A DNA stretch of 53,197 nt. Source: a virus. Positions 12,530 through 37,695 of this stretch are shown here, one piece after another. Position 1 is the first letter of the stretch. The number at the start of each line of letters is the position of its first letter. Below the pieces are notes generated by a model. That model ran no database searches. It was not told where the DNA came from and saw nothing but the letters and a program-made list of their open reading frames with translations. The position numbers and the translations under genes were made by a program. Location of the stretch: positions 1-53,197 of the IMG/VR virus record IMGVR_UViG_3300009826_000006; one strand, given 5' to 3'.

Positions 12530-15226
12530 GTGATTTATTCAAGGTTTATTACTTTCGAATGCAAGCATAATGACGGGCAGCTTTACGCTTTGTGCCCTTT
12601 ACATGTAGAAAAGACCCCGTCATTCACAGTTAATGAGGAGACAGAAGAATGGTATTGTTTTGGTTGTGCAGAGGGTGGAGGTCCTAAAGAATTTGTAGCT
12701 AAACTTCTAGATGTTGATATTACTATAGCTAAGACTGCGATTTCTACTTATGAAAAATCTGGTAATTGGATTTTGCCGGAGGATGATCGCATTGATAAGT
12801 TGCATGTAAATCTTATTACAAGACCTTCTGAAATAGCCATACTACACAAGTATGGTATAACTAGAGAAGCTATCGAAAAATATAGGTTAGGCTGGGAAGA
12901 TACTAGAATTATTTTCCCTATTTTTTCTCGTACTGGTTACTGCGTTAACCTAAGAAAATATCTCCCACCTCACAGGCGTGAAGATGCTTTGCGTAAGGTT
13001 ATACATGAAAGAGGTTTAGGTAAAGGAAGTCCAAGATTTTATCCTTATGAAGCCTTTGATGAGGATACTATTTTTATAGTCGAAGGTGAGAAAGACTGCA
13101 TTGCTGCTAGGGCTCAAGGCATCAATGCAGTTACAGGTACGGGAGGTGCAACTTTACCTGTACATGAAGCTTTAATGTTTAAGGACAAACATGTTATCCT
13201 AATGGTTGATACTGATAAAACAGGTAATAAATTGGCAAGAGATTACTATCAATTACTGCAGCAAGTTGCATCTTCTATAAAACGTGTAGTACTTCCTACA
13301 AAAGATTTTGTAGAGTATTTTGAAAATTGCTCAGAGTCTGAAGAGGATATGGATGTAATGAAATTCCTTGAAGCTTCTGTGCAACAAGCTGCTGATGAAG
13401 TTGAAGCTCAGGAAGCTACACTTGCATCAGCTGAAACAGTAGAAAACTTAGATACTTGGGTTATTTTAAAAAATATGACTATTGTAGGTACGGAAGCTAA
13501 AATTTATACAGTACCTACTAAACTAGAATGCGTATGTATTTCATCTAAATGCGATAAATTCTGCCCTTTGGCATCGACGTCTTTAACTGGTAAAGGACCT
13601 ATTATAGATGTACCATCTAGGCATGTTGTACATTTCCTAGACTCTAACGATGGTATACAAGATAAGTTTGTACAAGAAAAATTTCGTTGTCAAAAAGTAA
13701 AAGCTATACCTACAGAATATGTCAATGTACAAAAAATAATCTTCCAAGAGTCAGCCTCTTTTGTAGATGGTCTAGAAGATGCAACATTTGAACACCGTTA
13801 TGGAATGTACACATATGTGGACCATAGACTAAGCGCTACTATGAAATATGATTTAGTAGCTTGCAGAGTAACGGATCCTCGTACACAGGTAGTATATTAT
13901 GTTATTCGAGACGCTGAAAAGATTGATATGCATATACCATCTATGTATTTGGAAAGCGTAGATAAGTTCCGTCTCGTGGCGCAAATTTCTAACAGTGCTA
14001 TAGAACTTTTAGAACATTATTATAAAGAGTGGTTACCAACTTTAGCTATAGAAGGCCGATTAGATTTGTTTGGAGCTATGCTTTTAACATATTGCTCAGT
14101 AACAGAAATACCTTGGCAAGGTGGAATTATAAAAGGGTGGTTAGATACAATATGCGTTGGAGATACAAGAACGGGGAAATCTCAGATGGCACAACGCTTT
14201 GTTAAATCTATAGGAATGGGGAGTTACATCAATGGAGAAAACGCGCGTAGAACAGGTGTTATTGGAGGTCTCCAACAATTTGGAGGTTCTTGGGTTATCA
14301 CTTGGGGAGCTATACCACTCAATGACAGAGGCCTTCTTGTCATTGATGAAGCTAGTGGACTCGATATTGACGACATTAAAGACTTATCTTCAACGCGCAG
14401 TTCTGGAGCTGTTACACTTCATAAAATTGTTAAAGGAGAAGCAAGAGCTCGTACCAGGTTATTCTGGTTATCCAACCCCCGTTCAGGCTGTAACATTCAT
14501 GAATTCTACTGGCGTGGCTATGGAGCATTTCAAGAATTCATACCTGCAGTGGAAGACCAGGCAAGATTCGACCTCGTATTATCGGCGGCGCGAGAGGATA
14601 TAGATACTCCTAAAGGTATTGACCATTATCATGAACCTGAGCTTAACAACTGGCGAGATTTAGTTGCAACTGCTTGGTCTTTAACTCTTGAAGATATTAT
14701 TTACGATGATGTGTTTCGCGCTAGAATAAGAGAGTCCTCTAAAGCTCTCAATGAAGAAATGGGCGGTGGACCTCTTATTGTAGGGGTTGCTGTACATGAG
14801 AAACTTCTAAGGCTTTCCTGCGCTTTTGCAGTGCTTTCTGGAGATGTATATGATGGTAAGCTAAAACTTAAAGAGAGGCATCTAGAGTATTCTGTAGAGT
14901 TTCTTAAGTATACTCTCTTAAAGGAAACAATGTCTTACGGTGAATACGTTAAAGGCTTGAAAAAGGCTAGAGAAGCACGTATTAAGAATATAGAATTTAT
15001 ACGCGGTTTGTTAGTATTACATCCAGCAATAAAAGCTGTATTAATTGCAAAGACTTTCCGAGGACATCAGTTCTCTGAAATATTAGGTTTAGATAAAAAT
15101 GAATCTGCAAAGATACTCTCCGACCTTATTAAGCGAGGTCTTGTATCTGTACAGTCTCATGCTACTTATAAACCTGAAAGTGTTCTAACAGATGTAGCAA
15201 GACAATTCGAAATAGGAGGAGATTAG
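12530..15226 (+). CDS. primase-helicase fusion: CHC2 zinc finger + Toprim (DnaG-type) + MCM-like AAA+ ATPase; start moved to GTG 12530
   Basis: CPLHVEKTPSF...CFGC; IFIVEGEKDCIAA and MVDTDKTGNK (Toprim); GDTRTGKSQ, GAIPLNDRGLLVIDEASG, ARTRLFWLSNP, ARFDLVL align with MCM Walker A/B, sensor and Arg-finger motifs; AGGGGA SD. Confidence 0.75.
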   Translation: MIYSRFITFECKHNDGQLYALCPLHVEKTPSFTVNEETEEWYCFGCAEGGGPKEFVAKLLDVDITIAKTAISTYEKSGNWILPEDDRIDKLHVNLITRPSEIAILHKYGITREAIEKYRLGWEDTRIIFPIFSRTGYCVNLRKYLPPHRREDALRKVIHERGLGKGSPRFYPYEAFDEDTIFIVEGEKDCIAARAQGINAVTGTGGATLPVHEALMFKDKHVILMVDTDKTGNKLARDYYQLLQQVASSIKRVVLPTKDFVEYFENCSESEEDMDVMKFLEASVQQAADEVEAQEATLASAETVENLDTWVILKNMTIVGTEAKIYTVPTKLECVCISSKCDKFCPLASTSLTGKGPIIDVPSRHVVHFLDSNDGIQDKFVQEKFRCQKVKAIPTEYVNVQKIIFQESASFVDGLEDATFEHRYGMYTYVDHRLSATMKYDLVACRVTDPRTQVVYYVIRDAEKIDMHIPSMYLESVDKFRLVAQISNSAIELLEHYYKEWLPTLAIEGRLDLFGAMLLTYCSVTEIPWQGGIIKGWLDTICVGDTRTGKSQMAQRFVKSIGMGSYINGENARRTGVIGGLQQFGGSWVITWGAIPLNDRGLLVIDEASGLDIDDIKDLSSTRSSGAVTLHKIVKGEARARTRLFWLSNPRSGCNIHEFYWRGYGAFQEFIPAVEDQARFDLVLSAAREDIDTPKGIDHYHEPELNNWRDLVATAWSLTLEDIIYDDVFRARIRESSKALNEEMGGGPLIVGVAVHEKLLRLSCAFAVLSGDVYDGKLKLKERHLEYSVEFLKYTLLKETMSYGEYVKGLKKAREARIKNIEFIRGLLVLHPAIKAVLIAKTFRGHQFSEILGLDKNESAKILSDLIKRGLVSVQSHATYKPESVLTDVARQFEIGGD

Positions 15227-15228
15227 TA

Positions 15229-15477
15229 ATGGATGTTGAAAGATTGGAAAGGTTGTTTGAGAAATACCCTAAGCTTGAGAATTTTATTGCAGCAGGGAAT
15301 ATTACTCTTAAAGCTGCACGCACTATTCTAGGCTTCGCCGAGGATAGACATCTAATGTATGATATCTATGCAGAGCTTTTAGAAATAGGTGCGGTAGAAG
15401 GCACAGGTGCGGTTTCCTGGCGGGCAACACCTGAATTAAAAACTTATATGAAGGAGCGTAAAGCATGTACGACTTAA
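15229..15477 (+). CDS. hypothetical protein (82 aa)
   Basis: ORF in operon. Confidence 0.6.
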   Translation: MDVERLERLFEKYPKLENFIAAGNITLKAARTILGFAEDRHLMYDIYAELLEIGAVEGTGAVSWRATPELKTYMKERKACTT

Positions 15478-15911
15478 TATGTGCTAAAGGATTAATGGAT
15501 AACGTGAAGCACTTAAGGCAGCAGTTTCCTCATAGCCATTGCCAAAAGTTTGATAAGCTTGTTATGTGTATTAGTACATCACTAAAAGTTTCTGGTGGGC
15601 CGTTGCTTGAGCAATTTAATCGTATAACCTCTGAGCGTAAAGAAATGTCTGCTAACGATAAAGGCTATGAAGCTATGCTCTATATGTTAATTTGCGGGCT
15701 TAACGAAGAAACAGGCGAGCTAGCAGGACTCTTAAAAAGGGAAATTCGTGGAGATCCTAAACCTGCAGAAGCTTGGATTAGTGAATTAGGGGATGTCTAT
15801 TGGTATCTTATCAATCTTATTGATATATTAAATTTAGACCCTTTACAAATTTTACAATATAATCAAAACAAATTGGAGGAAAGATATGGGAACAGATCTA
15901 ATAATAGCTGA
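15465..15911 (+). CDS. MazG-like nucleoside triphosphate pyrophosphohydrolase
   Basis: EETGELAGLLKREIRGD and ELGDVYWYLINL motifs; AAGGAG SD. Confidence 0.7.
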   Translation: MYDLICAKGLMDNVKHLRQQFPHSHCQKFDKLVMCISTSLKVSGGPLLEQFNRITSERKEMSANDKGYEAMLYMLICGLNEETGELAGLLKREIRGDPKPAEAWISELGDVYWYLINLIDILNLDPLQILQYNQNKLEERYGNRSNNS

Positions 15912-16167
15912 CAACCTATTAAAAGATTCTGCAGATAGCGTTATAAATAATCCTTCTCACTATACCCAGGGAGGTATTGAGAGTATAGATGCTATAGCAA
16001 CTGCAACAAGGGACCTTAAAGGTATTGAGGCCGTTTGTATTGGTAATGCCTTAAAATATTTGTGGCGCTGGAAATTGAAGAATGGAACTGAAGATCTCAA
16101 AAAAGCTAAATGGTATATTGATTATTTATTAGAGGAGGATAATAATAATAATGAAAATTTATCATGA
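15886..16167 (+). CDS. DUF3310-family protein
   Basis: NPSHYTQGGIESIDAI...ALKYLWRWKLKNG..DLKKAKWYIDYLL signature. Confidence 0.65.
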   Translation: MGTDLIIADNLLKDSADSVINNPSHYTQGGIESIDAIATATRDLKGIEAVCIGNALKYLWRWKLKNGTEDLKKAKWYIDYLLEEDNNNNENLS

Positions 16168-16951
16168 GGCACCTAACGATGTATTTGAAGATGTACAGAA
16201 CCTAACAGATGGGGACTATGCTCTCTGCCATCTTTTGGAAGAAGGTAATATTGCGTATGTCAATCATTTCATCAATGCTCGTAGAGTAGGTAGAGAAATT
16301 ATGCTTGATAACTCTGTTTATGAGTTGGGAGAGGCTGTTAGTTTTGCGGTACTTTATAGGTGGTCAAATATATTAGAGCCTGACTGGCTATTTTTACCTG
16401 ACGTAATGCATAATGCAGTTGAAACAATTGCTAATGCTCATAAGTATATTATGACTTATGACATTCCTAAGCGTACTAAACTTGTAGGCGTTATACAAGG
16501 TAACGACTACCAAGAGGTAGTAGAGTGTTATAAAGCTTTAGCTGGTATATGTGATATGTTAGCTTTTAATTTTCAACTAGGTAAGTGGTTTGATCATTCT
16601 TTTCAAGGCAGAGTAAAAACACTTTTACAGCTAGAAGAAGATAATATCATACGTAAGGACAAGCTTCATCATCTGCTAGGTCTTAAAGTACCAAAAGAGC
16701 TTTTATATCACATGGATCGAGAGTACATTTACTCTATTGATACTAGCCAGCCCGTAATGTGGGGATTAAGTGCGGGTGAATACACCAATTTAGATCCTCT
16801 AACATGCTCTTTTAAAATGCCTGGTAAGTTATATAACCATGTCAATCGTGAAACATCATTTTTAGAGCGTGCCGCTATATTATCTAATATTAAATCCTTC
16901 AGAGCGTTTGTTAGAGGTGAGGAGGATACAAATGTTGCAGCAACTAGTTAG
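16151..16951 (+). CDS. dpdA: DpdA-like tRNA-guanine transglycosylase homolog (putative DNA 7-deazaguanine inserter)
   Basis: LDNSVYELG (cf. TGT DSGGFQ), LVGVIQGNDYQE (cf. LFGIVQGG), HLLGL (cf. HLxGxG), YSIDTSQP (cf. xFDCxxP). Confidence 0.6.
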   Translation: MKIYHEAPNDVFEDVQNLTDGDYALCHLLEEGNIAYVNHFINARRVGREIMLDNSVYELGEAVSFAVLYRWSNILEPDWLFLPDVMHNAVETIANAHKYIMTYDIPKRTKLVGVIQGNDYQEVVECYKALAGICDMLAFNFQLGKWFDHSFQGRVKTLLQLEEDNIIRKDKLHHLLGLKVPKELLYHMDREYIYSIDTSQPVMWGLSAGEYTNLDPLTCSFKMPGKLYNHVNRETSFLERAAILSNIKSFRAFVRGEEDTNVAATS

Positions 16952-24944: not shown

Positions 24945-25733
24945 CTACCCTCCTTCTATGCCTATCCCAGTTACTGTATTTGTAGACTGGTTCCAGCTTA
25001 ACTGGTAGCCAAATGTTTCAAGAATATCTCTTAAGCGTATTTCAAATTCGTTTCCAAGAAAGTCTTTAACAGTTACTAGCCATCGATTATCTACACGACG
25101 TGCCTGAATACTTGACCTGTGAGCTGACATGTCAAGAGTTACTAAAGGTAAAGAAGGCTTCGGAGCCATATTAATTTTTCTACCGCTAATTTCTTCAGCT
25201 ATAGCATGACATATTTCCTCGAAATGCTCGTTGTATAAAAATACATCCGTCACAGAATTTACAAAGCATATTTCAATAAGAATAGCAGTTGCAGTAGTAT
25301 TAGTTAAAAAGCTTAAATTATTACGGGCCCAAGCACCTTGTATAGTATGGCCATTATTTCTTAGTATAAGGCCAGATGCCTCAGAAATAGCCTTTGATAC
25401 GTTGCGTGCAAGCGTTCGCATAGCAGAATTGCCCGTACGGTATAGTGTCTCTACACCTATACCCGCTTTACGTGTGCCTCCGGCCACAGCATTAAAATGT
25501 ATAGACACATCCAAATCCCTAGCTTGGCTATTATGGTGCCTTACAATTGCACCTACATTATTAGACACTGTACGAGCATCGTTCTCATGAAAAGTATTTA
25601 CGCTTATACCATAAACACCTCTTAGTATGTCCGAGACTCTATCTGTAACGCGCCTTGCTTCATTTACTTCATCAATTAGCCCAACTGCACCGGGGACAAA
25701 CAGACCATGGCCGGATGAAATTACTATTCTCAT
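24945..25733 (-). CDS. N-acetylmuramoyl-L-alanine amidase (Amidase_3 type) endolysin with C-terminal wall-binding-like domain
   Basis: VISSGHG, DVSIHFNA, LIEICFVNS motifs; C-terminus resembles a copper amine oxidase N-terminal-like domain. Confidence 0.75.
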   Translation of the reverse strand: MRIVISSGHGLFVPGAVGLIDEVNEARRVTDRVSDILRGVYGISVNTFHENDARTVSNNVGAIVRHHNSQARDLDVSIHFNAVAGGTRKAGIGVETLYRTGNSAMRTLARNVSKAISEASGLILRNNGHTIQGAWARNNLSFLTNTTATAILIEICFVNSVTDVFLYNEHFEEICHAIAEEISGRKINMAPKPSLPLVTLDMSAHRSSIQARRVDNRWLVTVKDFLGNEFEIRLRDILETFGYQLSWNQSTNTVTGIGIEGG

Positions 25734-28363
25734 GTGTCACCTCGCGTCCTAGCAAGCTGTTCTACTCCTGCTTGATTTGATATGGTTTTCTCAAGGCTCT
25801 CAATTCGCGCGTCTTTTTCTTGTGCGTCTACAATTAGCAGTGTAAGCAGTTCCATCATATTTATTGAGACACGTTCGCCCACTTGTCTTTCGCTCATGAC
25901 TGGCTCTTGCTCAATCACAATTTTTTCTTCGTACACAGCATCAAGACCTGTGTCATCTGTGCGATTACCCAATTCATCAAATATGACGCCATCTGGCTGA
26001 ATTTTACTCAGCACTATTTCGATATGCTGGCTTTCTGTAAATTCTCCAGTCTCACATTCCTCCATAATAGGCACGTAAGAAATTAGGTTTACATCCTTAT
26101 TCTCTATGCCAAGAGTATCCATAGCTGCTTCGACATCTTGAGCAAAAAGGCCTATGTGCAGATTAGCGCCTACAGGCTCATCTTTGAAATTAAAAGCCTT
26201 GGGTTTTAGCAGTTTTAAAAGACCTTTAAGATTGCTAGGAATATTACTTTCATTTGTTTTTTCATTCGCGTCTGATGTTAAGGCCACGCCATTTGCAAAA
26301 ACAGTCCTAGAGGCGTGTACGTCTCGTACTCGTAATGCAGAAGTGCCTATATCCCATGTCGCAGTGACCATGGGTATCCAGCTTTTGTTTACCTGGCCAA
26401 GTGAGTCATTGTGCATGATACCGCTATTATAGGTGCGCAGGTTATTAACCGGGTTTACAGCCAAGCATGTGTTTCTTCTCACAAGGTGGATGCATCCTCG
26501 ACCAGCAGCCAAGCCTCCATCACGGTTATTGACACCTTCGTTTTGGTCGGAAAATATAAAGGCATTAAATTCTCCGGATATCCCAAGGCGTCTATTGGAT
26601 ATCAGATTCCTTAGGCACCAAATATCGGGTGTTTCCCTAACATATATGCCGTCGTGCGCCCCTGGGGCAGTACCAACAACTCTATTATCACAAATATGCA
26701 CGCGCGTATTACCCAAAACCTCAATGCCATGTGCCGTCGCAGTCGTTATATTGAAGCCGCGAAAATCTATAATTTCATTGTGATTATTTTCAATTATCAC
26801 ACGTGTAATATTGTGTGTGGCGGTAGCTGTAGATATATCTTGTACACCGGACGCATTGGCAGTGCGTATAGATAATCCTGCACCCCGGAAATTGCGTACT
26901 GCAAGAGTAGCATTTAATGTGCCAGGTCGAGCTAAGAATGTGATGTATCTAGTCAAATACAGCGGAAGCCCATCAATCGCCCGCTGCAATACTTCAATGT
27001 CCCATACCCTTATGGACGCTGCTCGCAACAATTCTTGGCCAAATCCATCTGGCGTTACACCAAAGCCACCTTCATTAGCTGTGTTAATGTGGAGATGTCT
27101 GATTAAAATATTTGTCCAAAGACCATCCGCTCTTAAGAGGAAATCGCCTCCTCGCCTCGCGCTGTATGCGTAATTGCAATTATTGCCGGAATTAGCAAAT
27201 CCGACAAATTTTCCTACGGATGTTCTTATCCCGATATTTAGATTTTCAAAGTAGTTATTATTGGCATAGACGTCGGATACTCCGTCACCAACTTCAATGC
27301 CGGTGCCACTTACCGTGCCGCTTGTATTTATAAAGTGATTATTTTGTATATGCACGTTTAAGCTACGGGCTGCGCTCACTCCTAATGTGTGCGTGCATCT
27401 AAAGTTCATAATTCGCAGATAATCGCCCATGTGTGAAGCACGTACGATAAATCCGCCAACAGTATGAGAGCCAGTTCTTGCCGCCGCCGCAGATTCAGCA
27501 CCAATTATGTCCAGTATGCCAGGGCCCCAAAAGTCACGGACGTCCATTATATCGTCGGTTACTCCAGGTAGCATATAAATGCGTGTACGGTATAGCACAA
27601 GCTTGGGCATATCTAGCAAATACTGCCTCATTTTATGGGGCTCAACATAGTGGTCTGTCCAGGGAGGCGCATTGCTGATTTCGCTAGATGCAGAGGTCAC
27701 TCCAATGGGCACCGGATACCACTGTTCAAAATGCCATTTGTCATTATCTAGCTTTTTTGCCGACCGCTCGTGCTGGAACCATAAATCGGATGTTGCATAT
27801 CTTTGAATTAGCGCATCACTTCCCAGCGCGACTATTTCCAGGCTAAACCTCCTTGGTTCTTCATCCGGTCGTAGCGGAGGCATGTGGGGCTGGTTGGCTA
27901 TGCTTTCTGCAATTTCTGATACTGCAAAGTAACGCCCTAGCTTAATGATTAGATTTAAGTCCGAGTTCTCAGGTATAGAGGTACCTGTAAACATATTACT
28001 AATATGAGTTAGATTATCAGTAGTGTCTTTTGTATTTAGATCTAAAGCTCTTACATTATCTTCGATGTCAGTAAATCTAATCTCAGGAATAGTGTTTGAA
28101 ATGGTACTTCCTGCGTTCCATTGCCTGTTCTCATTAGGTCTTTGAACTCCTCTTACTACATCAGTAAGCGTATTTCCTACTGTATTACGATATTCTATAG
28201 TTTCACCTGACTCATCTGTACCTATAGTAGCGTAGGCTGGAGCTGGAGCTAACATAGATATATCTTCTACATGTATTTCAGTAGCTTCTGAACTTATAGG
28301 TTGTACTAACTCAGTTGAGGTACTATAAGGCATTCCATTATGCATTGGTTTTAAGATTCTCAA
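25730..28363 (-). CDS. receptor-binding tail fibre/spike: beta-helix-like central region plus C-terminal S74-type intramolecular chaperone
   Basis: repetitive N/G-rich beta-helix-like segments; C-terminal LTSDANEK...HIGLFAQDVEAAMD matches the chaperone domain signature; start ambiguous (GTG 28372, TTG 28363 or ATG 28345). Confidence 0.7.
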   Translation of the reverse strand: MRILKPMHNGMPYSTSTELVQPISSEATEIHVEDISMLAPAPAYATIGTDESGETIEYRNTVGNTLTDVVRGVQRPNENRQWNAGSTISNTIPEIRFTDIEDNVRALDLNTKDTTDNLTHISNMFTGTSIPENSDLNLIIKLGRYFAVSEIAESIANQPHMPPLRPDEEPRRFSLEIVALGSDALIQRYATSDLWFQHERSAKKLDNDKWHFEQWYPVPIGVTSASSEISNAPPWTDHYVEPHKMRQYLLDMPKLVLYRTRIYMLPGVTDDIMDVRDFWGPGILDIIGAESAAAARTGSHTVGGFIVRASHMGDYLRIMNFRCTHTLGVSAARSLNVHIQNNHFINTSGTVSGTGIEVGDGVSDVYANNNYFENLNIGIRTSVGKFVGFANSGNNCNYAYSARRGGDFLLRADGLWTNILIRHLHINTANEGGFGVTPDGFGQELLRAASIRVWDIEVLQRAIDGLPLYLTRYITFLARPGTLNATLAVRNFRGAGLSIRTANASGVQDISTATATHNITRVIIENNHNEIIDFRGFNITTATAHGIEVLGNTRVHICDNRVVGTAPGAHDGIYVRETPDIWCLRNLISNRRLGISGEFNAFIFSDQNEGVNNRDGGLAAGRGCIHLVRRNTCLAVNPVNNLRTYNSGIMHNDSLGQVNKSWIPMVTATWDIGTSALRVRDVHASRTVFANGVALTSDANEKTNESNIPSNLKGLLKLLKPKAFNFKDEPVGANLHIGLFAQDVEAAMDTLGIENKDVNLISYVPIMEECETGEFTESQHIEIVLSKIQPDGVIFDELGNRTDDTGLDAVYEEKIVIEQEPVMSERQVGERVSINMMELLTLLIVDAQEKDARIESLEKTISNQAGVEQLARTRGDT

Positions 28364-28547
28364 AAGTAACACCTCCTAACTCCGTAGTTAGCACTCTTTT
28401 ACTACCTGTATCCGTTTGATAGTGGAGCGTAATCAAATTTTTAGACGTATCACTATTGCATCTGTCAACAGATACTTGTAAGGACACTACATTAGGTACT
28501 TCTACTCCGTCTACATATACCTTGAATGGTAGGCTAAAGTCAATCAT
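28338..28547 (-). CDS. hypothetical small virion-module protein (69 aa)
   Basis: GAGGAGGTG SD. Confidence 0.6.
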   Translation of the reverse strand: MIDFSLPFKVYVDGVEVPNVVSLQVSVDRCNSDTSKNLITLHYQTDTGSKRVLTTELGGVTFENLKTNA

Positions 28548-28560
28548 ATTATCACCTCCT

Positions 28561-30759
28561 CTATAATGCTCTGTCTCCCCTAGAATTCACAAAACCTTTT
28601 ACAGCAGCCATAACTCTTATATTAGAAGGTAAGTTAGGCCTTATTTCTATGCGATGATACGTACCTCTTGAAAGTCTACCTTGAGCATTTAGTAGCCAAT
28701 CCGTAATATCTCTGTTTAGTCGTGTACTAGTTATAGTTTGTCTCAACTGGCCATTTACTATAACGTCAAAGCGAGTAGGTTGTTCTCGCCATGCAGCCAT
28801 GTTAGGTACCATAGTATGTGAATGACTAGGTAATACAATACTGTGTGTATGGGACATATCATGCGTATGTGCCATATTATGATTATGTGCTATATTATGT
28901 GTATGTGCCATTCCGTGAGTGTGTGACATATTATGAGTGTGCGACATACCATGGGAATGATTACCTCCTAAGTGCGTGTGTTCCATATTATGTGTATGAT
29001 TCCCAATTGTATGAGTGTGTGCCATACCATGAGTATGTGCAGGCATTCTGGGATATGCTGAAATCATATGACTATGACTAGTTGGACTGATAGTAGTAGA
29101 TGCAGTAGCCGTTCCGCTGACATTAGTAGTTGCTGATAACGTAGTAGCAGTTATTGAATCAGGCACTGCGCCACCCGCAAGTATCCAAGTGCCTGCAATT
29201 GCAGGAGAGCTAACTGTCGTAGCTGTTGATGAGCTGCTACTAGTAGTAGCACCACCAGATGAAGTTGTTGTGCTTGTCGAAGCACCTCCTGAAACTACAC
29301 CTCCTCCTGTAGTAGTGTCAACACTTGAGGCGCCACTGGTTGCAGTAGAAGAAGCGCCGCTCGTAGTTGCAGAAGAAGCACCTGAGGAAGTTGCAGAAGA
29401 CGGTCCACTTGTTGTTGTGGAAGAAGGTCCAGAGGTATTTCTTGACGAGGCTCCGGACGTATCAGAGCGACTACCTCCTCCTTCAGTCGCTTGAGAATCT
29501 ATTCTGAACCTACCCATAAACACATCAAGTTCAATAAAATTAATAATGTTCAGTCCAGGTGGTATGAACAGTTCCATTCGTAGCGGATTGTTAAAATCAC
29601 AGTTACCATTTTCACTTTCAGTAAAGAATGTAGTTGCACCTTGTGCGTAAGCCATCTCTATACGCTGACGGTCTTTTGCATTAGCTATGGAGCCCACTAT
29701 ATCTCTTGATTGATTAGCTAACGTTACATTTATTACTTGCTCTTCGTCGTGATTATATTCTATTCCTACTATATAAGTATTATAGTTAAAATCAGGTAAT
29801 GTTACCATTCTACCTAATGAGGGCCTAAATCTTTGACTTGCATCTAGTGCAGCAAAATTAATTTCCCACTCCTCATAAGGATGTTCCAATGCTCTTAGTA
29901 GTGCAGTAGCTGCATCACGTAGACTTTGTTCATCCGTATATCTGCGGTCAATAAAAGGTCTCTCAATTATTCCATACTCTTCAACTATATTAGGCGAAGA
30001 TTGTATAAATGGTATATTATTATTTACTCTTCTAATATTTACCTGATTTATACCTTCTCCTTGTCCTAGAGGATATATACGAGTACACATAGTTGTAGGG
30101 TCAGAATTTCTTACTAGCTTAACAAGATTACGACCAATCATTATAGGTAATGCAGTTCGTACGTCTGTACTTAGTCTACGCAAATTTAGCACGTAAGGAT
30201 ATATATTGGTGTTAAAATCGAACATCCAGTCTTCCGTAAAAGGATTACCTATTGACCATAAGGCGTGTAGTATCTGCTCTTGCTCCCAGCCGTACTCAAA
30301 GTTACGATTTATCTCACATGTACCGAGTACCCAATCAGTGCGTTTAGTATTATCAGCTCGCCAAACTGCTGGGAAAGCCCAAGGGTCAAAAGTCATGCTT
30401 TGACGTGCTAATAACCACCTAATTACGTTGGTAGTATTGTTAGCGGCACCTATGCCTCCCATTACGTGCCAGCCAAACATAAGGTGGTCCAATAGTGTTG
30501 CTATTACATGCTCACACTCGTAACGCACTGTACCTAACTCATCCACAGTTTCTTCTTTAGGCATAATTCTATACACTTGACCATTAGCATAATTAACAGT
30601 ATTAAAAGGTTGGCACAAATGGTTTTTAGTATCGTCAGCAGGTAATGAAAAACTAAAGGAGCTAATAGAATTAAGTTTTACGTTTTCGTGTATATTAAAA
30701 GCATTCTGCAAGATACCTAAAGGACGTCTAGTAGGGCTATATACTGTTAGTCTATTCAT
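28561..30759 (-). CDS. tail tip protein (Tal-like N-terminal domain) with Ser/Thr-rich linker and a 13x HxH array
   Basis: N-terminus resembles the phage minor structural / prophage tail endopeptidase family; low-complexity TSGASS repeats; HTH/HSH/HNH repeats. Confidence 0.7.
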   Translation of the reverse strand: MNRLTVYSPTRRPLGILQNAFNIHENVKLNSISSFSFSLPADDTKNHLCQPFNTVNYANGQVYRIMPKEETVDELGTVRYECEHVIATLLDHLMFGWHVMGGIGAANNTTNVIRWLLARQSMTFDPWAFPAVWRADNTKRTDWVLGTCEINRNFEYGWEQEQILHALWSIGNPFTEDWMFDFNTNIYPYVLNLRRLSTDVRTALPIMIGRNLVKLVRNSDPTTMCTRIYPLGQGEGINQVNIRRVNNNIPFIQSSPNIVEEYGIIERPFIDRRYTDEQSLRDAATALLRALEHPYEEWEINFAALDASQRFRPSLGRMVTLPDFNYNTYIVGIEYNHDEEQVINVTLANQSRDIVGSIANAKDRQRIEMAYAQGATTFFTESENGNCDFNNPLRMELFIPPGLNIINFIELDVFMGRFRIDSQATEGGGSRSDTSGASSRNTSGPSSTTTSGPSSATSSGASSATTSGASSTATSGASSVDTTTGGGVVSGGASTSTTTSSGGATTSSSSSTATTVSSPAIAGTWILAGGAVPDSITATTLSATTNVSGTATASTTISPTSHSHMISAYPRMPAHTHGMAHTHTIGNHTHNMEHTHLGGNHSHGMSHTHNMSHTHGMAHTHNIAHNHNMAHTHDMSHTHSIVLPSHSHTMVPNMAAWREQPTRFDVIVNGQLRQTITSTRLNRDITDWLLNAQGRLSRGTYHRIEIRPNLPSNIRVMAAVKGFVNSRGDRAL

Positions 30760-30762
30760 ATA

Positions 30763-31464
30763 CTATATAAACCTTGCATCATATACAAGTTCCCCTTCTA
30801 TTAAAGTTCCGGCTTGTGCGGATAATACTAATTGCCTTGTGTTTCTATTTAGCATAATCCACTCACCTGAGAATGTCCAAAAGATATCCTCGGTACCTCT
30901 AATGACACTAAAATTTTCCGAATCAATTCGTATTTCTCCACCTGGAGGAATTATAGTATTGATAGTAAAGCTGGCTTGGCGTTTCATACCCATCGAAACA
31001 AAGGCATAGACTACATCAACGCTATGAAAGTTTAAAGGTATAAGTTGTCCAATAGTAACACTTGAATCTATATCTGAGCTCATATTTAAAGTTTCAATAT
31101 GCATAAGCATACCTACATGTATCTTAGGCATTAACTTACTACTAAAGATTAGAGTAGAATCTATATAAGCAAAGATACTTACTAAGGACGATACATAGTC
31201 TTTAGTAATGAGATGCATATGAATAAACAATATCGGAGTAACTTTTGAAGTAAGTCTATCTGCACTTACGAATTCTAGAGGTAGTAGTATACGCATATTT
31301 ACTTTAGAGTTAACACGAGAATTAGCTCTAAATAGTAGGGGCATATATGTACGTGCACCTACCACTGCAATAATTTCGCTGTGAGCACTAAAGTCAAGAT
31401 AAATATATTTTATGCGTGCTGTAGGGCTATTATACTTCGCTATATTATACTTTGCTGTACTCAT
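30763..31464 (-). CDS. baseplate-module protein; C-terminus Dit-like
   Basis: position; C-terminal IIPPGGEIRIDSENFSVIRG...LVYDARFI resembles the ends of distal tail proteins. Confidence 0.5.
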   Translation of the reverse strand: MSTAKYNIAKYNSPTARIKYIYLDFSAHSEIIAVVGARTYMPLLFRANSRVNSKVNMRILLPLEFVSADRLTSKVTPILFIHMHLITKDYVSSLVSIFAYIDSTLIFSSKLMPKIHVGMLMHIETLNMSSDIDSSVTIGQLIPLNFHSVDVVYAFVSMGMKRQASFTINTIIPPGGEIRIDSENFSVIRGTEDIFWTFSGEWIMLNRNTRQLVLSAQAGTLIEGELVYDARFI

Positions 31465-32250
31465 CTAATTTAAGGATATCCTTATATTACCTGGATTGTG
31501 TATAGGAACATGATTAGGTGCAATAATTTCTGGTACTGCAAACTGTACCTTAACTATTGCCTGACCGCCTACTTGCGAGTCCATTATAGCAGCCCAAGCT
31601 TTATTTCCCCAAGTAGTAGTAGGCCTAGGAAACTGTACTTCGTTAGTGTTAGCTATTTCGGTAAATCCTGCTGGTTGAATAGAAGGCGTATTAAATATTA
31701 TATTAGGTCTACTATAAGTTGGACCAGATAATTCTGAACCTCCTGCTTCAGGATCGCCGTCAAATAGTGCCATATGAGGGGAGATACCTAACATGTTTAA
31801 ACCTCTACATATATTTAAAAATCTGGTTTTAAACTCAACAGTAGTTGCCCCAGAATGTATAAACATAATATCGCCTTGTGCTATAGATGGCTGTCTACCT
31901 GCACGTATATCCAAAGGTATAGTAAGCTCACCTCTAAGTAACATATTTCCAGAACCGACTACACCGGAATCTAGAATGCCTATAAAGCGCGCTTGTCCTA
32001 CATCAGCAGTGCTCTCTGACCACAATATATCTCCTACATTACGCACAGCAATACCTCCGCCTTCTGCAAATGGAGGAGTTAATACTAATGGTTGCCGCGA
32101 GTATTCTGGGTACTGTAATTCTATACCTCCTTGACCTGTGTCGCCAGGATCGGTAGCATACAAAGCTACAAATATGTTAGGTATACCTACGGCAGTAATA
32201 CCATTAAAAGTGTTGAGACCTAAAGCCTCGTAAAAATGTGTTGCTACCAT
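31465..32250 (-). CDS. virion protein with an internal tandem duplication
   Basis: two similar halves (ALYATDPGDTGQGGIELQYPEYSRQP... / ALFDGDPEAGGSELSGPTYSRPN...). Confidence 0.55.
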   Translation of the reverse strand: MVATHFYEALGLNTFNGITAVGIPNIFVALYATDPGDTGQGGIELQYPEYSRQPLVLTPPFAEGGGIAVRNVGDILWSESTADVGQARFIGILDSGVVGSGNMLLRGELTIPLDIRAGRQPSIAQGDIMFIHSGATTVEFKTRFLNICRGLNMLGISPHMALFDGDPEAGGSELSGPTYSRPNIIFNTPSIQPAGFTEIANTNEVQFPRPTTTWGNKAWAAIMDSQVGGQAIVKVQFAVPEIIAPNHVPIHNPGNIRISLN

Positions 32251-32261
32251 ATACTTTCCCC

Positions 32262-32813
32262 CTAATCTGAAATACGTTCTATACTAGTAACTGTTGGATT
32301 TACTATATTGTGATTATTAACATTGCGTAATACTATCAAGGTAGGTGCTTCAGCTGTGCCTGTATAGTCAATATAATTTATACCTCTATGAAGTCTAACA
32401 CGATTCTGTTCACCATAGGCAAAAGGTTCAGCAATAAAAGGTAACGTAAATTCTCTACGCACTTCGCTAGGAAAAACATCAACATCTACTTCAGCAAATA
32501 ATTCTGCTATATAATACTTATCAGGTTCGTCCCAGAAAAATAATCGCATAGGACGTACAAGTATAGCAATAATTTCACGTAACTCTGCTTTGGGTAGATG
32601 CCTAGTTAAATGGCAGTCAACTTCAATAGTTTTATCTGAGAAGTAACTTTGTCCTGATAATTTTCTAGTACCGTGTTGAAAAGGTAGCTGTTTACGTCTA
32701 GGTCTTTTAGGTGCAGAAAATGTATCGTAGCTTATAATCTTCATACCCCACATTTCGTAGCAGTTGTGGAGCCTGCTATTTATATTAAAACTATTAGGAG
32801 GCATCTCAACCAT
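32262..32813 (-). CDS. distal tail protein (Dit) N-terminal-like protein; start moved to ATG 32813
   Basis: LFFWDEPDKYYIAEL...FIAEPFAYGE and YTGTAEAPTLIVL patterns; immediately after the tape measure. Confidence 0.55.
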   Translation of the reverse strand: MVEMPPNSFNINSRLHNCYEMWGMKIISYDTFSAPKRPRRKQLPFQHGTRKLSGQSYFSDKTIEVDCHLTRHLPKAELREIIAILVRPMRLFFWDEPDKYYIAELFAEVDVDVFPSEVRREFTLPFIAEPFAYGEQNRVRLHRGINYIDYTGTAEAPTLIVLRNVNNHNIVNPTVTSIERISD

Positions 32814-35800
32814 TAACAAGTACAACCCCTTTACTTCTAGTTTCTTGACGTAAGTATTTACCTAACTTCCTAGCCTGCGACCTTATACTTTCCTTATCTT
32901 CTAAAGGTGTACCCCCTTCTCCATCTATATTAATAGTAATATCTTTTTCTACTACTACAACCTTTACAGATGTACTTGGATAGCTAACAATCCCCTTAGT
33001 GATTATCTGAGTATTTTTTAATTTTGAAAGTTGTTTACTTACTTCTGATATATCTTCGTACATAGTTGAAAAATCGGGATAATCAAAAGTAGTTAAACTA
33101 CTGCATAAGTCCTTAAGTGAGGATTCTATTGCCTTTGTACCATTTAGTAATCCGACAGCTATACCTTCAGAAAACATACGTCCTAAATATATTGCAACAC
33201 GTGAAGGGGATCGAATTTGTAAAGCACTCTGTATAGTATTTCTAATTCCATCTGCAATCGACTGTGCTGCTGACATTAGAGAACCATGCTGAGACCATAG
33301 ACCGCTTTCGAGACCTTGCATTATTTGCTGGCCGAGATGCTTTATGTCTAGCTGACGTACAATCTTATATATCTCATCTATTATATCATGCGTAGCTTGT
33401 CTAATGTCGGATAGTCTATCCAGCAATCCGTGAACTAGTCCTTGTGATAGATAGGTTCCGTATCTACGGGTTCTTCGTGAGGGTGAGTTCATTTCACCTC
33501 TACTAGTCATTGTATCAAAAATTTCATCAATAGCCTGACTACTAGCATCACGTAAATCCGAGTAGGTAGCCTCTATACCTTCGACAGTTCCATCACCTAT
33601 TGACAAACCTATTTTAGAAGGGTCATTATACTGTACTGCATCATGTGCAGCATTAAATGTTTGAACAACAGCCTCAACCATAGAATTTTCCATAGCCATA
33701 TTATTTGCTATAGCTTCAGCAGCCATGTCCATTGCCTCATCCATTGTGTTACCTAGTGCAGCAAATTCCGTTGCCACTGCTTTTACAGTATTGGCGGATA
33801 TCTCAGTAAACAGGTCATCCATTTCCTGTAGCATATTACCGCCGTCAGCAACAAATTCGCGTATATGCGGCAAACCCTCAATACCCATAGAACGTAGGTG
33901 CTCAACAACTTCGGCTGAGAGCTCTAAATCTTTAGCAAGCTGGTCTATTAAATCCATATAATAGCCAAATGCAATCCAGTTTTCAGCAGTAGTTTCAAGC
34001 TCAGCTGATGTTGCACGTAGGTCATCAATAATAGATTGTGCAGATGATTCGCTGTCACTAGCAGCTGACTGAAATACGTTTGAGACGGCATTCGCATATT
34101 GTTCCAGTACAGTTTCAACTGCTTCAATAGCAGCCTGTTGCCTTGCTAATGTTTCAATAAGCTCTTCTTGAGCTTGCTGTGCTTCTCCAACTATTTGCAT
34201 CTGTTCTTGAATACTTACATTAAGTAAGTCGTTTGCATTACTATTTGCTTCAAGCATTTCAGTGTAAGTTGCAAGTGTTGCTATTGCCTCAATAATCAGA
34301 TTATTAAGATATCTTTCCTCTGCGTTGCGCCTTACAGTACCATCTGCACTAAGATCATTTAGCTCATTTAATACTCTAGTTGCTTCCTGTTTCCTTATAG
34401 CAATTTCTAAACCTTCTTCTGCAAGTCTATTACTCTCGGCGGTTAATGTTTTTAGATAAGCAGTTTCTTGTGAGGCTGTAATAAACTGCAACATGGCTTC
34501 AGACGATCTATTTAAAGAGTCTTCGGTAGCATCAAAAGCTAAATTTAATCCTGGTATAAGACCGTTTAACTCATCAATATGTCTCTCCATCTGAACAGTT
34601 TGCCACAAAGCTCTATCTTGAGAATCTGCTAATTCTATAATAGATTCCTTGAGTTCGTACATTCTATATCTATTTTCTTGTAAGGCATTCATTTGCTTAA
34701 TAAAAGCTTCAGCACTACTTTCTACGGTATCCACTAATTCTTGCTGAGCTTTAGAAGCCGCAGATACTACCTCAGACATATATACAACTTCGTAGGATTG
34801 TTGACGCATACGTATTATAAGATAAGCAATACCTACAGTAAGTGCAGTTACACCTGCTACAATAGCCGTAATCGGATTTGCCATGAGAACTTTGAACAGT
34901 GCTAGTGCTGCTTTTTTAAGTGTGGGGAATACTGTTTTAGCAAGCAATGTCTTTACCTTGGCGTATGCGTTTACAGCAAACGTACCTGAGGCTATGCTAC
35001 TACTCAAACTAACAAAGCCTGCTTTTATCTTAGCTAAATTTAGTCCTTTCAGTGCAAGCCCTAGACTTATAAATTTAGTAGTGAGTGCTGTAACACCTAT
35101 CTTCAATACTGCCAATACACCCCCCTTTGTAACAATAGCGCTTTTCATCGCAACAAATTTTGCAGTTAATGCGCTGGTTACTGAAAGAATACCTCCTTTA
35201 AGCACATTAGCATATATAACCATTTTTGCTACTAAGGCCTTTAATTTAGTTTTCAGAGGTGTTACAGATTGTTTTATAAAAATACCAAATTGGCGATTGA
35301 GCGCAATCTTATTTGCCTTCATTGCAGATGCGGCAAGATTATAAGCTTTAATTGCTTGTGTTAACTTTATTATAACCTTTAACTTCATAAAGTTGTAAGC
35401 AAGTATTGCAAGTATTGGATATAGTAGACGTATATTATTTAATAAAAAAATTAAAACTTCCAGAAAAGCCCTAAAAGCTACATAAAGTACTCCACCTACT
35501 AACGCTGCTACCGCTCCAAATGCTACGAGCAAATAGGGTAAGTCATTTAGCACAGTGTTTAGTGCGTTTTTAAGTGCTGTAAATAATCTATCAAAGTTAG
35601 TTGTAAGCACAGTTAATACACCTACCACTGCTGTTACTGCAGCTACAAATACAGTTTTTAGTATATTACCTAGTATACCTACTACGTTAAGAAGTGAATA
35701 GAGTATACTGCCTAGAGCTGAAACTTCTTTACTAAAGGCTTTAAAAACAGCATTACCTGCTTTAAATGCACCTGTTAAAGCTTTAATCATAGGTAATAAA

Positions 35801-37695
35801 GTTGCTATTACTTTCAGTTTTATAAAATATCCTGCTAATATAATTATAATAGGGTATAGAACTCTAATATTATTTAACAACCAAGCAAATCCAGATATAA
35901 GTGCAGGAATAATTGTTTCTATTAAAGGCCTTACTGCTGCACCTATACTAGAGAACACTCCAAACAATACAATAAAATCTGAGGAAACTGTTGTCACTAC
36001 ATTTCCAAGGCCCCCAAAAAGTTCAATTGAATTTTCAGCTGTACCATTTATCGTTCCTCTTAGTACAGCAGCTAATAGTAAGAGCTTATTGGTTACATAA
36101 TCGACGCCCATTGTTAATATAGTAAACAAGCTATTTAAAGCACTACCTGCAATAACAAAGAGATTTAGTTCTCCTACAACAGGAAATATAGCCAATACTA
36201 AGCTAGAAAAAGCAAGAATAAGAGAGTAGGATGTATATACTAACGCCATAAAAAGATTTGCTATACTTTCAAATAGACCTAGTAGAGGCGTAATATTTAT
36301 TTGAATTTCAGACATACCTAAAACTAGCAAGCTAAATTGCGATATTAAAGACTTTAAAGTATAACCGACGAAAGATATTGCCCCACCTAAAATCTTATAT
36401 AGACCGGACGCAAGCGCTTGCACAGCCTCTATAAATAAATGCAAAATAGCTATAGGAAATGAAGTACCCATTTCAACAAGCAATCCTATAACTGTAGACA
36501 AGCCAGTAAACATTACGGTAATGACCGTTGAAAAAAGCCCTTGAACTGCAAGTAACCCTCCATGCAATGACCCACCGGGTCTTAACATTTCAGCAATGTC
36601 CCATAGTTTATTGGATATTACCTCTAAAAAATCTAATTGTATCTCACGTTTTGTTTGCCACACTGTAATGAGTATATCTGAGAGTGCATTACGAATAGAA
36701 CCTAAAACATTAGTAAGATTCCTTGATTGTATTTCCGCCATACCAAAAGCACGACCTACACCATCAAACGCATCTCCTGCTTCGTACATAAGCCTTATGT
36801 TATCCTGCCATGCATCTTTATTATTACTTAACTCGTCAAATACGGCGCGTGCATAAACTGTACTAAATAAATCTTGTGTAAGATTTACACGTTCTTGTTC
36901 AGTAGCAACACCATCTAAAGCCTTCATAGCGTCTAACAAGATATCATTAAAAGGCCTAAGTGCTCCTGTAGCTGTATCAAAAGTATTTATACCTAGAGTA
37001 CGCATTGCTGTAGCTGCTCTATCTGACGGGCCTGTTAGTTGATTAAATACTTGTTCTAGCCCCCTACCTGCCTGTACACCGTATATACCTCCGCGGTATA
37101 ACTGAGCAAGTGTACCACTCATGTACTCAACAGAGGTTCCTGAGGCATTCATGGTGGGTGCTAACGTAATAATAGCTTTTTGCAAATTACCTAAAGACAT
37201 ACCAGATTGTGCAACTACACCCGAAAATACATCTATATATTTATTAGCAGCATCTACATCTTGATTGGTCTTCATTAATGCGAGTCCTAAAAACTGAGTT
37301 GCTTGTGTTAAGTCCGCATTTGTTGCGATAGCAAGTGTTTGCGCATAATTCATTAAAGCAAAAGATTCTTCAGCAGTTCGCCCATCAATTGCTATTTTTT
37401 GAAAAGCTGTAGCCAGTTCAATTGCAGAGTTAGCTCCTACCCTAGAAAGGTCTCTGAAACCGAATTCTAGTTCAGTTAGAGATTCTTGAGTCATACCTGT
37501 TCGAGCAGCTATAGGAGCCATAGCCTGGTCAAACGCATCTCCTGTTCTAGCTACAGCAACTTTAAAAGCAGTCCAAGCAATAATAGCTCCGGCTATCATA
37601 TATTTGAGTTTGGAGTTGAACTTATTCATCGAGCTTTCAACGTCTTGAGTTTCTAGGTCTGTTGAAATTGTAATATTACCATCAGCGCGCGCCAT
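32806..37695 (-). CDS. tape measure protein (1629 aa)
   Basis: size, position after the chaperones, long hydrophobic and coiled-coil regions. Confidence 0.9.
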   Translation of the reverse strand: MARADGNITISTDLETQDVESSMNKFNSKLKYMIAGAIIAWTAFKVAVARTGDAFDQAMAPIAARTGMTQESLTELEFGFRDLSRVGANSAIELATAFQKIAIDGRTAEESFALMNYAQTLAIATNADLTQATQFLGLALMKTNQDVDAANKYIDVFSGVVAQSGMSLGNLQKAIITLAPTMNASGTSVEYMSGTLAQLYRGGIYGVQAGRGLEQVFNQLTGPSDRAATAMRTLGINTFDTATGALRPFNDILLDAMKALDGVATEQERVNLTQDLFSTVYARAVFDELSNNKDAWQDNIRLMYEAGDAFDGVGRAFGMAEIQSRNLTNVLGSIRNALSDILITVWQTKREIQLDFLEVISNKLWDIAEMLRPGGSLHGGLLAVQGLFSTVITVMFTGLSTVIGLLVEMGTSFPIAILHLFIEAVQALASGLYKILGGAISFVGYTLKSLISQFSLLVLGMSEIQINITPLLGLFESIANLFMALVYTSYSLILAFSSLVLAIFPVVGELNLFVIAGSALNSLFTILTMGVDYVTNKLLLLAAVLRGTINGTAENSIELFGGLGNVVTTVSSDFIVLFGVFSSIGAAVRPLIETIIPALISGFAWLLNNIRVLYPIIIILAGYFIKLKVIATLLPMIKALTGAFKAGNAVFKAFSKEVSALGSILYSLLNVVGILGNILKTVFVAAVTAVVGVLTVLTTNFDRLFTALKNALNTVLNDLPYLLVAFGAVAALVGGVLYVAFRAFLEVLIFLLNNIRLLYPILAILAYNFMKLKVIIKLTQAIKAYNLAASAMKANKIALNRQFGIFIKQSVTPLKTKLKALVAKMVIYANVLKGGILSVTSALTAKFVAMKSAIVTKGGVLAVLKIGVTALTTKFISLGLALKGLNLAKIKAGFVSLSSSIASGTFAVNAYAKVKTLLAKTVFPTLKKAALALFKVLMANPITAIVAGVTALTVGIAYLIIRMRQQSYEVVYMSEVVSAASKAQQELVDTVESSAEAFIKQMNALQENRYRMYELKESIIELADSQDRALWQTVQMERHIDELNGLIPGLNLAFDATEDSLNRSSEAMLQFITASQETAYLKTLTAESNRLAEEGLEIAIRKQEATRVLNELNDLSADGTVRRNAEERYLNNLIIEAIATLATYTEMLEANSNANDLLNVSIQEQMQIVGEAQQAQEELIETLARQQAAIEAVETVLEQYANAVSNVFQSAASDSESSAQSIIDDLRATSAELETTAENWIAFGYYMDLIDQLAKDLELSAEVVEHLRSMGIEGLPHIREFVADGGNMLQEMDDLFTEISANTVKAVATEFAALGNTMDEAMDMAAEAIANNMAMENSMVEAVVQTFNAAHDAVQYNDPSKIGLSIGDGTVEGIEATYSDLRDASSQAIDEIFDTMTSRGEMNSPSRRTRRYGTYLSQGLVHGLLDRLSDIRQATHDIIDEIYKIVRQLDIKHLGQQIMQGLESGLWSQHGSLMSAAQSIADGIRNTIQSALQIRSPSRVAIYLGRMFSEGIAVGLLNGTKAIESSLKDLCSSLTTFDYPDFSTMYEDISEVSKQLSKLKNTQIITKGIVSYPSTSVKVVVVEKDITINIDGEGGTPLEDKESIRSQARKLGKYLRQETRSKGVVLVNG

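Follow-up and report, generated by a model that had tools for sequence, protein, structure and literature searches.

The DNA analysed here is a 53,197-nucleotide viral stretch (IMG/VR record IMGVR_UViG_3300009826_000006, positions 1 to 53,197; hereafter the window), and it is a siphophage genome of about 53 kb. An open reading frame (ORF) on its minus strand, at 28561..30759, encodes a 732-residue tail-tip protein, that is, a Tal-type baseplate hub with a C-terminal fibre module that contains a long row of HxH motifs (two histidines separated by one residue). The gene was assigned from the ORF together with matches to Pfam, TIGR01665 and phrog_4311. The protein scored 79.1 bits with Pfam Prophage_tail (PF06605; cut-off 31.3) and 76.3 with NCBIfam TIGR01665 (cut-off 26.75). 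It also matched Pfam Prophage_tailD1, the Prophage_tail N-terminal domain, and phrog_4311 covers it end to end. An identical 732-residue protein is encoded on metagenome contig ERZ27257300 k141_3732219, which is 53,213 nucleotides long and of which the window makes up nearly all. All features of this protein are given below in window coordinates and lie on the minus strand.

Residues 1-420 (29500..30759) form a gp27-like hub domain, as judged from an AlphaFold2 (AF2) model and Foldseek searches. The AF2 monomer of the whole protein, built on an alignment of 85 homologues, has predicted local distance difference test (pLDDT) values mostly of 80-97 across this domain. Foldseek matches of the predicted N-terminal 415 residues to solved Tal and hub trimers had E values from 1e-18 to 1e-13. 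The best was NF5 Tal (9m7n, E 4.5e-18); other hub matches were Listeria gp18 (3gs9, 1.4e-16), 6v8i (4.3e-14), the monocin tip and 80alpha Tal, with VgrG and T4 gp27 more distant. NF5 Tal is a trimer, and Tal hubs are trimeric and plug the tail tip (PMC12917162). By analogy with these solved homologues, the window hub is probably trimeric at the tail tip, and the identity of the hub would thus provide a threefold axis for the C-terminal module. The gene position agrees with the fold. The gene for the tape measure protein (TMP; 32806-37695, 1629 residues) is followed by a short Dit gene (32262-32825), two small genes and then the Tal gene, and the synteny around Tal in Enterococcus phage IME197 is similar. 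By family score, fold and gene position, the product of 28561..30759 is a siphophage Tal hub, and the first-pass annotation, made from the DNA letters alone, had rightly called it a tail-tip protein. Known Tal proteins (NF5 gp17, 80alpha Tal and Listeria A118-type gp18; PF06605) share the N-terminal 420-residue fold and the gene position. Their C-terminal extensions are helix bundles, beta-helices, carbohydrate-binding modules or lysins, unlike the HxH array of the window protein.

The HxH array occupies residues 562-648 (28816..29076) and was delimited by its 13 HxH motifs, by their conservation in homologues and by an hhalign match to T4 gp37. The motifs are nine HTH, three HSH and one HNH. 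They start at residues 562, 575, 581, 588, 594, 601, 607, 613, 619, 625, 631, 637 and 646, with spacings of 13, 6, 7, 6, 7, 6, 6, 6, 6, 6, 6 and 9. Our recount agrees with the 13 HTH/HSH/HNH motifs reported earlier, the central 11 of them spaced 6-7 residues apart. The 90-residue peptide quoted for them is exact (residues 561-650, 28810..29079); the interval 28808-29090 given for it does contain the array, slightly too wide and out of frame. Twenty-six of the 35 histidines of the protein lie in the array stretch, the other nine elsewhere, and within the array every histidine belongs to a non-overlapping HxH pair, with no HH and no stray histidine. The repeat unit is H-T-H-[N/G]-[M/I]-[A/S], so that the window protein is of a 6-residue type. 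In such a unit the two histidines and the Met or Ile at positions 1, 3 and 5 fall on one face of a beta-strand, which suggests a core in which histidine cages alternate with hydrophobic layers. Units of 7 or 9 residues include Gly or Pro, by which the register of the strand could be reset.

At the DNA level, Tandem Repeats Finder (TRF) reported a repeat at 28847-28938 with a period of 18, 5.1 copies and 72% matches, which is the most regular part of the array only; the same array was also read at 36 bp. The 18-nucleotide units are on average 64% identical, and their His and Thr codons vary synonymously. The earlier description of a degenerate array with an 18-21 bp period was therefore a fair one. 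Because the units have diverged with synonymous changes, the protein motif appears to have been maintained while the DNA drifted. When the 90 residues were shuffled, 7.1 +/- 1.9 HxH motifs (overlapping ones counted) were obtained, and 13 or more occurred in 328 of 100,000 shuffles. Conservation across the family is a stronger argument against chance than this shuffling.

How widespread such long arrays are, a question raised in the first-pass annotation, was answered by homology searches. Proteins about 30% identical to the window protein were found by tblastn in Enterococcus phages phiEf11, EFC-1 and IME197 and in Bacillus phage vB_BhaS-171, and about 6-9 HxH motifs stand at the equivalent position in IME197 and BhaS-171. 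All of the 120 closest database homologues have an HxH cluster, with 3 to 26 motifs and most commonly 6-8. A search of 1.84 billion representative proteins with residues 545-732 (E <= 1e-3) gave 245 matches, each a representative cluster carrying the module, with up to 41 HxH. P0148 (1061 residues) has 41 tandem HxH and P0007 (985 residues) has 26. The commonest family spacing is 9 residues (HxHxVxIPx, 526 times), and spacings of 6 and 7 also occur. Among the 85 homologues of the alignment, H637, H639, H646 and H648 are invariant, and three more pairs are at least 90% conserved. The array is thus a family trait rather than an oddity, and it is under selection. Thirteen motifs are unremarkable in this family, in the upper range of a distribution from 3 to 41. 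The claim that the window protein has more sites than known examples thus holds against solved structures (gp37 has seven; PMC12609058) and fails within its own family. The homologues in cultured phages (RefSeq NC_028671, NC_025453, NC_013696 and NC_030904) and phrog_4311 itself are labelled 'minor head protein', other members are labelled 'hypothetical', and neighbouring genes of IME197 are labelled 'capsid and scaffold protein'. The 'minor head protein' and 'capsid and scaffold protein' labels look like annotation errors, because the fold and the gene position are those of Tal.

The array is one of four parts of the C-terminal region. Upstream of it are eleven 8-residue Ser/Thr/Gly-rich repeats (TSGASSRN, TSGPSSTT and so on) at residues 434-521 (29197..29460), recognised by direct reading, by autocorrelation (0.47 at lag 8) and by TRF (24-bp period at 29347-29400). 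Between the two repeat arrays lies a non-repeat middle segment, residues 522-574 (29038..29196), which includes the first, isolated HxH at residue 562. Downstream of the array is a C-terminal domain, residues 649-732 (28564..28815), a small beta-sandwich delimited by its pLDDT, its fixed distance from the array and its conservation. In the full-length AF2 model its pLDDT is about 97 for residues 661-720. Modelled separately (pLDDT 79), the domain gave no significant fold match in PDB, the best E value being 0.35. In nearly all homologues, the distance from the last HxH to the C-terminus is constant at 81-84 residues. Mean identity is 0.42 for the hub and 0.40 for the C-terminal domain, and 0.27-0.29 for the intervening segments. 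Divergence of the C-terminal domain tracks that of the hub (rho 0.76), and the intervening segments are only loosely tied to the hub. A C-terminal domain conserved like the hub, together with a variable middle, is what would be expected if both ends of a needle were at the hub and the middle were its exposed tip. If the chain runs out and back, the host-contacting part is likely the middle segment, residues 522-574, and not the C-terminus.

Sequence databases gave little help with the region itself. A PDB sequence search with the whole protein and with its C-terminal 189 residues returned only a spurious Ssr1 match (E = 0.2), and no model in the Pfam copy used or in NCBIfam matched the HxH array or the C-terminal module; some homologues are listed with PF26674, an entry outside that copy. 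Known phage fibres offer a closer comparison. HxH motifs from three chains cage iron on the threefold axis in T4 gp37, P2 gpV, phi92 and R-pyocin fibres, where the sites were proposed to set the chain register and stiffen the fibre (PMC6116203); the background on gp37 and P2 gpV given in the first-pass annotation is correct on this point. There are seven HxH in T4 gp37 and six or seven in the Bas63 fibres, and the gp37 chain doubles back at the head so that the needle is six-stranded (PMC12609058). The literature on HxH-iron sites also includes an Alteromonas podophage with six predicted sites and a 'Trojan horse' iron idea, and the phi11 receptor-binding protein with a differently spaced site. 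Full-text literature searches found no description of HxH arrays in Tal proteins, nor of a pairing rule with a second repeat; the CASP13 paper, the Abitsa paper and a paper on a marine Bacillus phage likewise had nothing on such arrays in Tal.

The HxH motifs of gp37 are at residues 883, 915, 929, 966, 980, 989 and 998, and the last three make up a 25-residue stretch that reads as the family 9-residue unit. When the family alignment was compared with gp37 811-1026 by hhalign, three consecutive repeats (residues 618-643 of the window protein) aligned with gp37 978-1004, which holds three of the seven gp37 HxH, with a probability of 95.1% and E = 3e-8 over 27 columns. In BLASTP comparisons of family members with the gp37 tip, the highest identity was 38%, over 94 residues. 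When a profile was made from the last two HxH and the C-terminal domain, its sole PDB match was 2xgf (gp37), not significant at E = 1.2. The arm of gp37 opposite its last three HxH is likewise Ser/Thr/Gly-rich.

The T4 gp37 tip (2XGF), the Bas63 fibres and the window protein therefore have tandem HxH in common, and the 9-residue unit HxHxVxIxx is shared with the family. The differences are also clear. The window module is fused to a siphophage Tal hub and not to a long-fibre shaft, and it lacks a tail-collar domain. Its HxH are all on one arm in a regular 6-residue unit, with 13 sites against seven. The protein ends in an 84-residue beta-sandwich that has no counterpart in gp37. A virion would have a single such trimer, on the tail axis, in place of six side fibres.

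We compared the lengths of the two repeat arrays across the family. The upstream segment was taken as everything between the hub and the HxH array, and the HxH segment was counted over all HxH after the hub. The lengths of the two segments were correlated with r = 0.71 in 210 proteins; a measure restricted to the main HxH cluster gave a weaker r = 0.32. Relatedness was controlled for by using phylogenetically independent pairs of close relatives that differ in HxH length. The two segments changed in the same direction in 59 of 78 such pairs (p = 6e-6), and the two changes agreed within 15% or 4 residues in 27 of the 78 (permutation p < 1e-4). Pairwise alignments showed what had been gained or lost. 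Homologues P0094 and P0119 differ by three 10-residue SGGxSTxTSx units upstream and three 9-residue HTHxVxIPx units in the array, P0086 and P0105 by three 10-residue upstream units and three 9-residue HxH units, and the pairs P0044/P0059 and P0111/P0120 each by one upstream unit and one HxH unit. The periods are coupled as well, 10 with 9, 7 with 7 in P0004 and P0005, and 16 with 13 in P0087. The window protein has 11 units of 8 residues against 11 regular HxH units, and P0148 has its 41 HxH over about 285 residues with about 310 residues of small-residue sequence upstream. The apparent pairing rule of roughly one upstream unit to one HxH unit is a new finding. Since two different repeats follow a one-to-one rule across a non-repeat segment, the simplest explanation would be that each small-residue unit lies beside an HxH unit, the chain going out and coming back.

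The same relation was met in fibres of another kind. A tblastn search with the array found Aeromonas phage phiA050, with 47.5% identity over the array. The match is an unannotated 421-residue fibre with an N-terminal Gp10_C domain (T4 baseplate protein Gp10 C-terminal domain). In this protein, 11 HxH spaced by 6-7 residues precede a head with mirrored motifs on either side, and about eleven small-residue units of 8 residues and a C-terminal hydrophobic tail follow. It is encoded in PP763568.1 at 13901-16543, a stretch without any annotated coding sequence that holds ORFs of 455 and 421 residues, the second being the HxH fibre. In 120 homologues of the phiEcoM-GJ1 type the lengths of the two arms were correlated with r = 0.98 and a slope of 1.38, close to 8/6; no more than ten different length classes occur among these fibres, and in each of the six independent pairs that were informative the arms changed in the same direction. 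By the same measure, the arms of T4 gp37 have 49 and 61 residues. The phiEcoM-GJ1/phiA050-type fibres are thus like the window protein in combining HxH units of 6-7 residues with small-residue units of 8 residues in equal numbers. They differ in that the arrays stand in the opposite order, in the N-terminal anchor and in the C-terminus, and they are fibres of phages infecting Gram-negative hosts, not tail-tip hubs. As far as sequences can tell, the recurrence of the pairing rule in an unrelated fibre family is an independent replication.

These results are best explained overall by a gp37-like metal needle that runs out and back on the Tal hub, to which we give a probability of about 0.58. That the array belongs to a trimeric, metal-binding HxH fibre is, by analogy with the solved fibres, likely; the out-and-back topology, which rests on the repeat patterns, is favoured by a smaller margin over even odds. 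We infer the trimer geometry, the metal binding, the identity of the metal and the function of the array. In the proposed needle, the C-terminal 310 residues would make up a slender central fibre of the tail, with the architecture of the gp37 receptor-binding tip. The eleven 8-residue repeats (residues 434-521) would be the outward strand from the hub, the variable non-repeat residues 522-574 would make the distal head and the turn and are the candidate receptor-contacting tip, and the HxH repeats of residues 575-648 would be the return strand, so that the 84-residue beta-sandwich would end up adjoining the hub. With three chains the needle would have six strands. Every HxH would contribute two imidazoles per chain, and these six would hold one metal octahedrally on the threefold axis; by precedent the metal is most likely Fe(II), and there would be 13 ions per virion. 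The Met or Ile at repeat position 5 would fill the core between the sites, and the small residues of the partner strand would leave room for the histidine cages. The ions may set the register of the three chains in folding and stiffen the needle, which by a rough estimate would be about 20-25 nm long if the strand is near-extended. Such a needle would serve as a stiff stalk that holds the variable head out to the host envelope, and not as a piercing point.

Several observations weigh against this explanation. In the AF2 monomer, residues 430-640 are unstructured (pLDDT 30-45), and no fold is supported for the array. The gp37 alignment covers a short stretch of 27 columns, in repetitive His-rich sequence. 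The tail-collar domain (PF07484-type) was not found with Pfam or NCBIfam, and a Tal hub precedes the needle instead. The co-variation is a coupling of the arrays and no proof of a side-by-side six-stranded barrel. Nor is the coupling universal, as P0163 has about 24 HxH against only about 105 upstream residues. The upstream segment of the window protein, at 142 residues, is longer than the family regression predicts for an 87-residue array. Nineteen of the 78 independent pairs changed in opposite directions. Several of these look like boundary artefacts in which a stray upstream HxH shifts the boundary. In the phiEcoM-GJ1-type family, too, the out-and-back topology is one that we likewise infer.

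The strongest competitor is a needle that passes outward only once, with a flexible or separate Ser/Thr/Gly linker, a three-stranded, metal-studded HxH shaft and a distal C-terminal sandwich contacting the host. It follows the linear order of the domains, and the C-terminal domain is a confidently folded small sandwich, as in many receptor-binding tips. In other phages of Gram-positive hosts, Tal proteins are believed to extend to the cell wall with their C-terminal additions (PMC12917162), and the AF2 monomer shows no pairing of the two arrays. A single pass would, however, leave unexplained both the nearly one-to-one co-variation in copy number and period and the reverse-order pairing in the second fibre family. 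Moreover, the greatest variability would be expected in a distal receptor-binding tip, whereas the C-terminal domain matches the hub in conservation and diverges together with it. We regard the single pass as unlikely on balance, though well ahead of the remaining alternatives. The first-pass annotation had proposed a metal-studded trimeric needle. Its needle is supported by the trimer-forming type of hub and by the likeness to gp37 978-1004; a free-standing, single-pass form of it is unlikely given the co-variation of the array with the upstream repeats.

The region might instead be a disordered His-rich tract that binds metal or anionic wall polymers, or senses pH, without a defined needle. 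His-rich tracts commonly bind Zn or Ni and titrate near physiological pH, and the pLDDT is below 50 across the region. A disordered tract would hardly be expected to keep strict i/i+2 His pairs in regular spacing, a conserved hydrophobic position 5 and a fixed distance to the C-terminal domain, or to be coupled to a second array and resemble the ordered gp37 needle. Low confidence in a monomer model is also to be expected for an obligate intertwined trimer. We therefore consider disorder improbable. It is far less credible still that the HxH motifs serve a wall-degrading enzyme domain, such as an M23 peptidase or a metallo-beta-lactamase-type hydrolase, as its catalytic metal ligands. Some Tal proteins do carry M23 domains that use HxH (motif in PMC9662197), but no hydrolase family was matched in Pfam, NCBIfam or PDB sequences, and 13 tandem copies without HxxxD or other catalytic context cannot form one active site. 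A by-product of a DNA tandem repeat or a mis-called frame, to which the 18-bp TRF repeat and an antisense ORF through the region might point, is just as implausible, because one uninterrupted frame takes in the array together with the well-supported hub and C-terminal domain, the protein motif is kept perfectly while DNA units fall to 64% identity, and the array is conserved in hundreds of distant homologues.

A piercing apex of the P2 type was also considered and rejected. P2 gpV, phi92 gp138 and the R-pyocin PA0616 apex resemble the window protein in that HxH from three chains cages one Fe on the threefold axis (PMC6116203). They have a single HxH at a sharp C-terminal apex after an oligonucleotide/oligosaccharide-binding (OB) fold and a beta-helix, whereas the window protein has 13 HxH followed by a folded domain of 84 residues, and no spike family was matched in Pfam by the 732-residue protein. 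The earlier suggestion of a membrane- or wall-piercing device is thus unsupported, and the rigid stalk offered as its alternative fits better with an array that is followed by a folded domain.

A more speculative role may be added, which we consider doubtful. The needle could be a length-tunable 'metal ruler' with one metal site per repeat pair (3-41). In the acidic, cation-binding Gram-positive wall, protonation of the histidines or loss of metal might unzip the needle and open the tail-tip plug, the row of ions thus triggering DNA release instead of serving only as a structural brace. Unzipping would open the plug because the C-terminal domain would sit on the hub.

The genes around Tal have some features of their own. 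The two genes inserted between Dit and Tal (30763-32250, minus strand) are an unusual arrangement. One product, of 261 residues, has two matches to Pfam Gp80 (podophage GP4 fibre protein); the other, of 233 residues, has no match in Pfam, PHROGs or NCBIfam. After the Tal gene come a 69-residue ORF, a gene for an 880-residue fibre and an Amidase_3 endolysin gene. The 69-residue ORF (28338-28547, minus strand) is directly downstream of Tal and overlaps the listed GTG start of the fibre gene; the contig's gene calls start the fibre gene later, giving an 871-residue product. A small ORF is found at the same place in IME197 (57 residues) and BhaS-171 (65 residues). The 69-residue ORF has no family match, and its IME197 counterpart is not obviously alike in sequence. 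By analogy with gp38, which serves T4 gp37, its product could be a fibre assembly factor. The 880-residue fibre or spike protein (25730-28372, minus strand) has a C-terminal Peptidase_S74 intramolecular chaperone domain at residues 700-755 and a long middle without a family match.

Two antisense ORFs on the plus strand cross the HxH repeats (28845-29081, 78 residues) and the Ser/Thr/Gly repeats (29189-29494, 101 residues). Their products are Tyr/Val-rich and Val/Glu/Pro-rich, and since this composition mirrors the repeat codons, they are almost certainly not genes. The genome as a whole is divided into divergent arms, 1-20116 on the plus strand and 20196-47668 on the minus strand, with opposite GC skew. 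The replication arm encodes a PD-(D/E)XK nuclease, an SNF2 helicase, a ligase, a primase/MCM-type helicase and DNA polymerase A, and genes for structure and lysis are on the other arm. The window ORFs that were scanned included no integrase, which suggests that the phage is lytic.

The solved HxH metal sites in phage fibres are few, with 1-7 sites each, and this large, uncharacterised Tal family has much longer arrays. If each HxH binds one ion, no such row of metals known from a single protein fibre would be longer than those of P0148 and P0007. The labels 'minor head protein' of phrog_4311 and the RefSeq entries should be corrected. The pairing rule predicts how the chain runs and where the tip that contacts the host lies. 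Should this hold, sequence alone would suffice to find the receptor-binding part in these Tal proteins, in the non-repeat middle and not at the C-terminus. The length of the fibre and its metal content per virion would then become predictable, and stiff protein rods of chosen length could be engineered.

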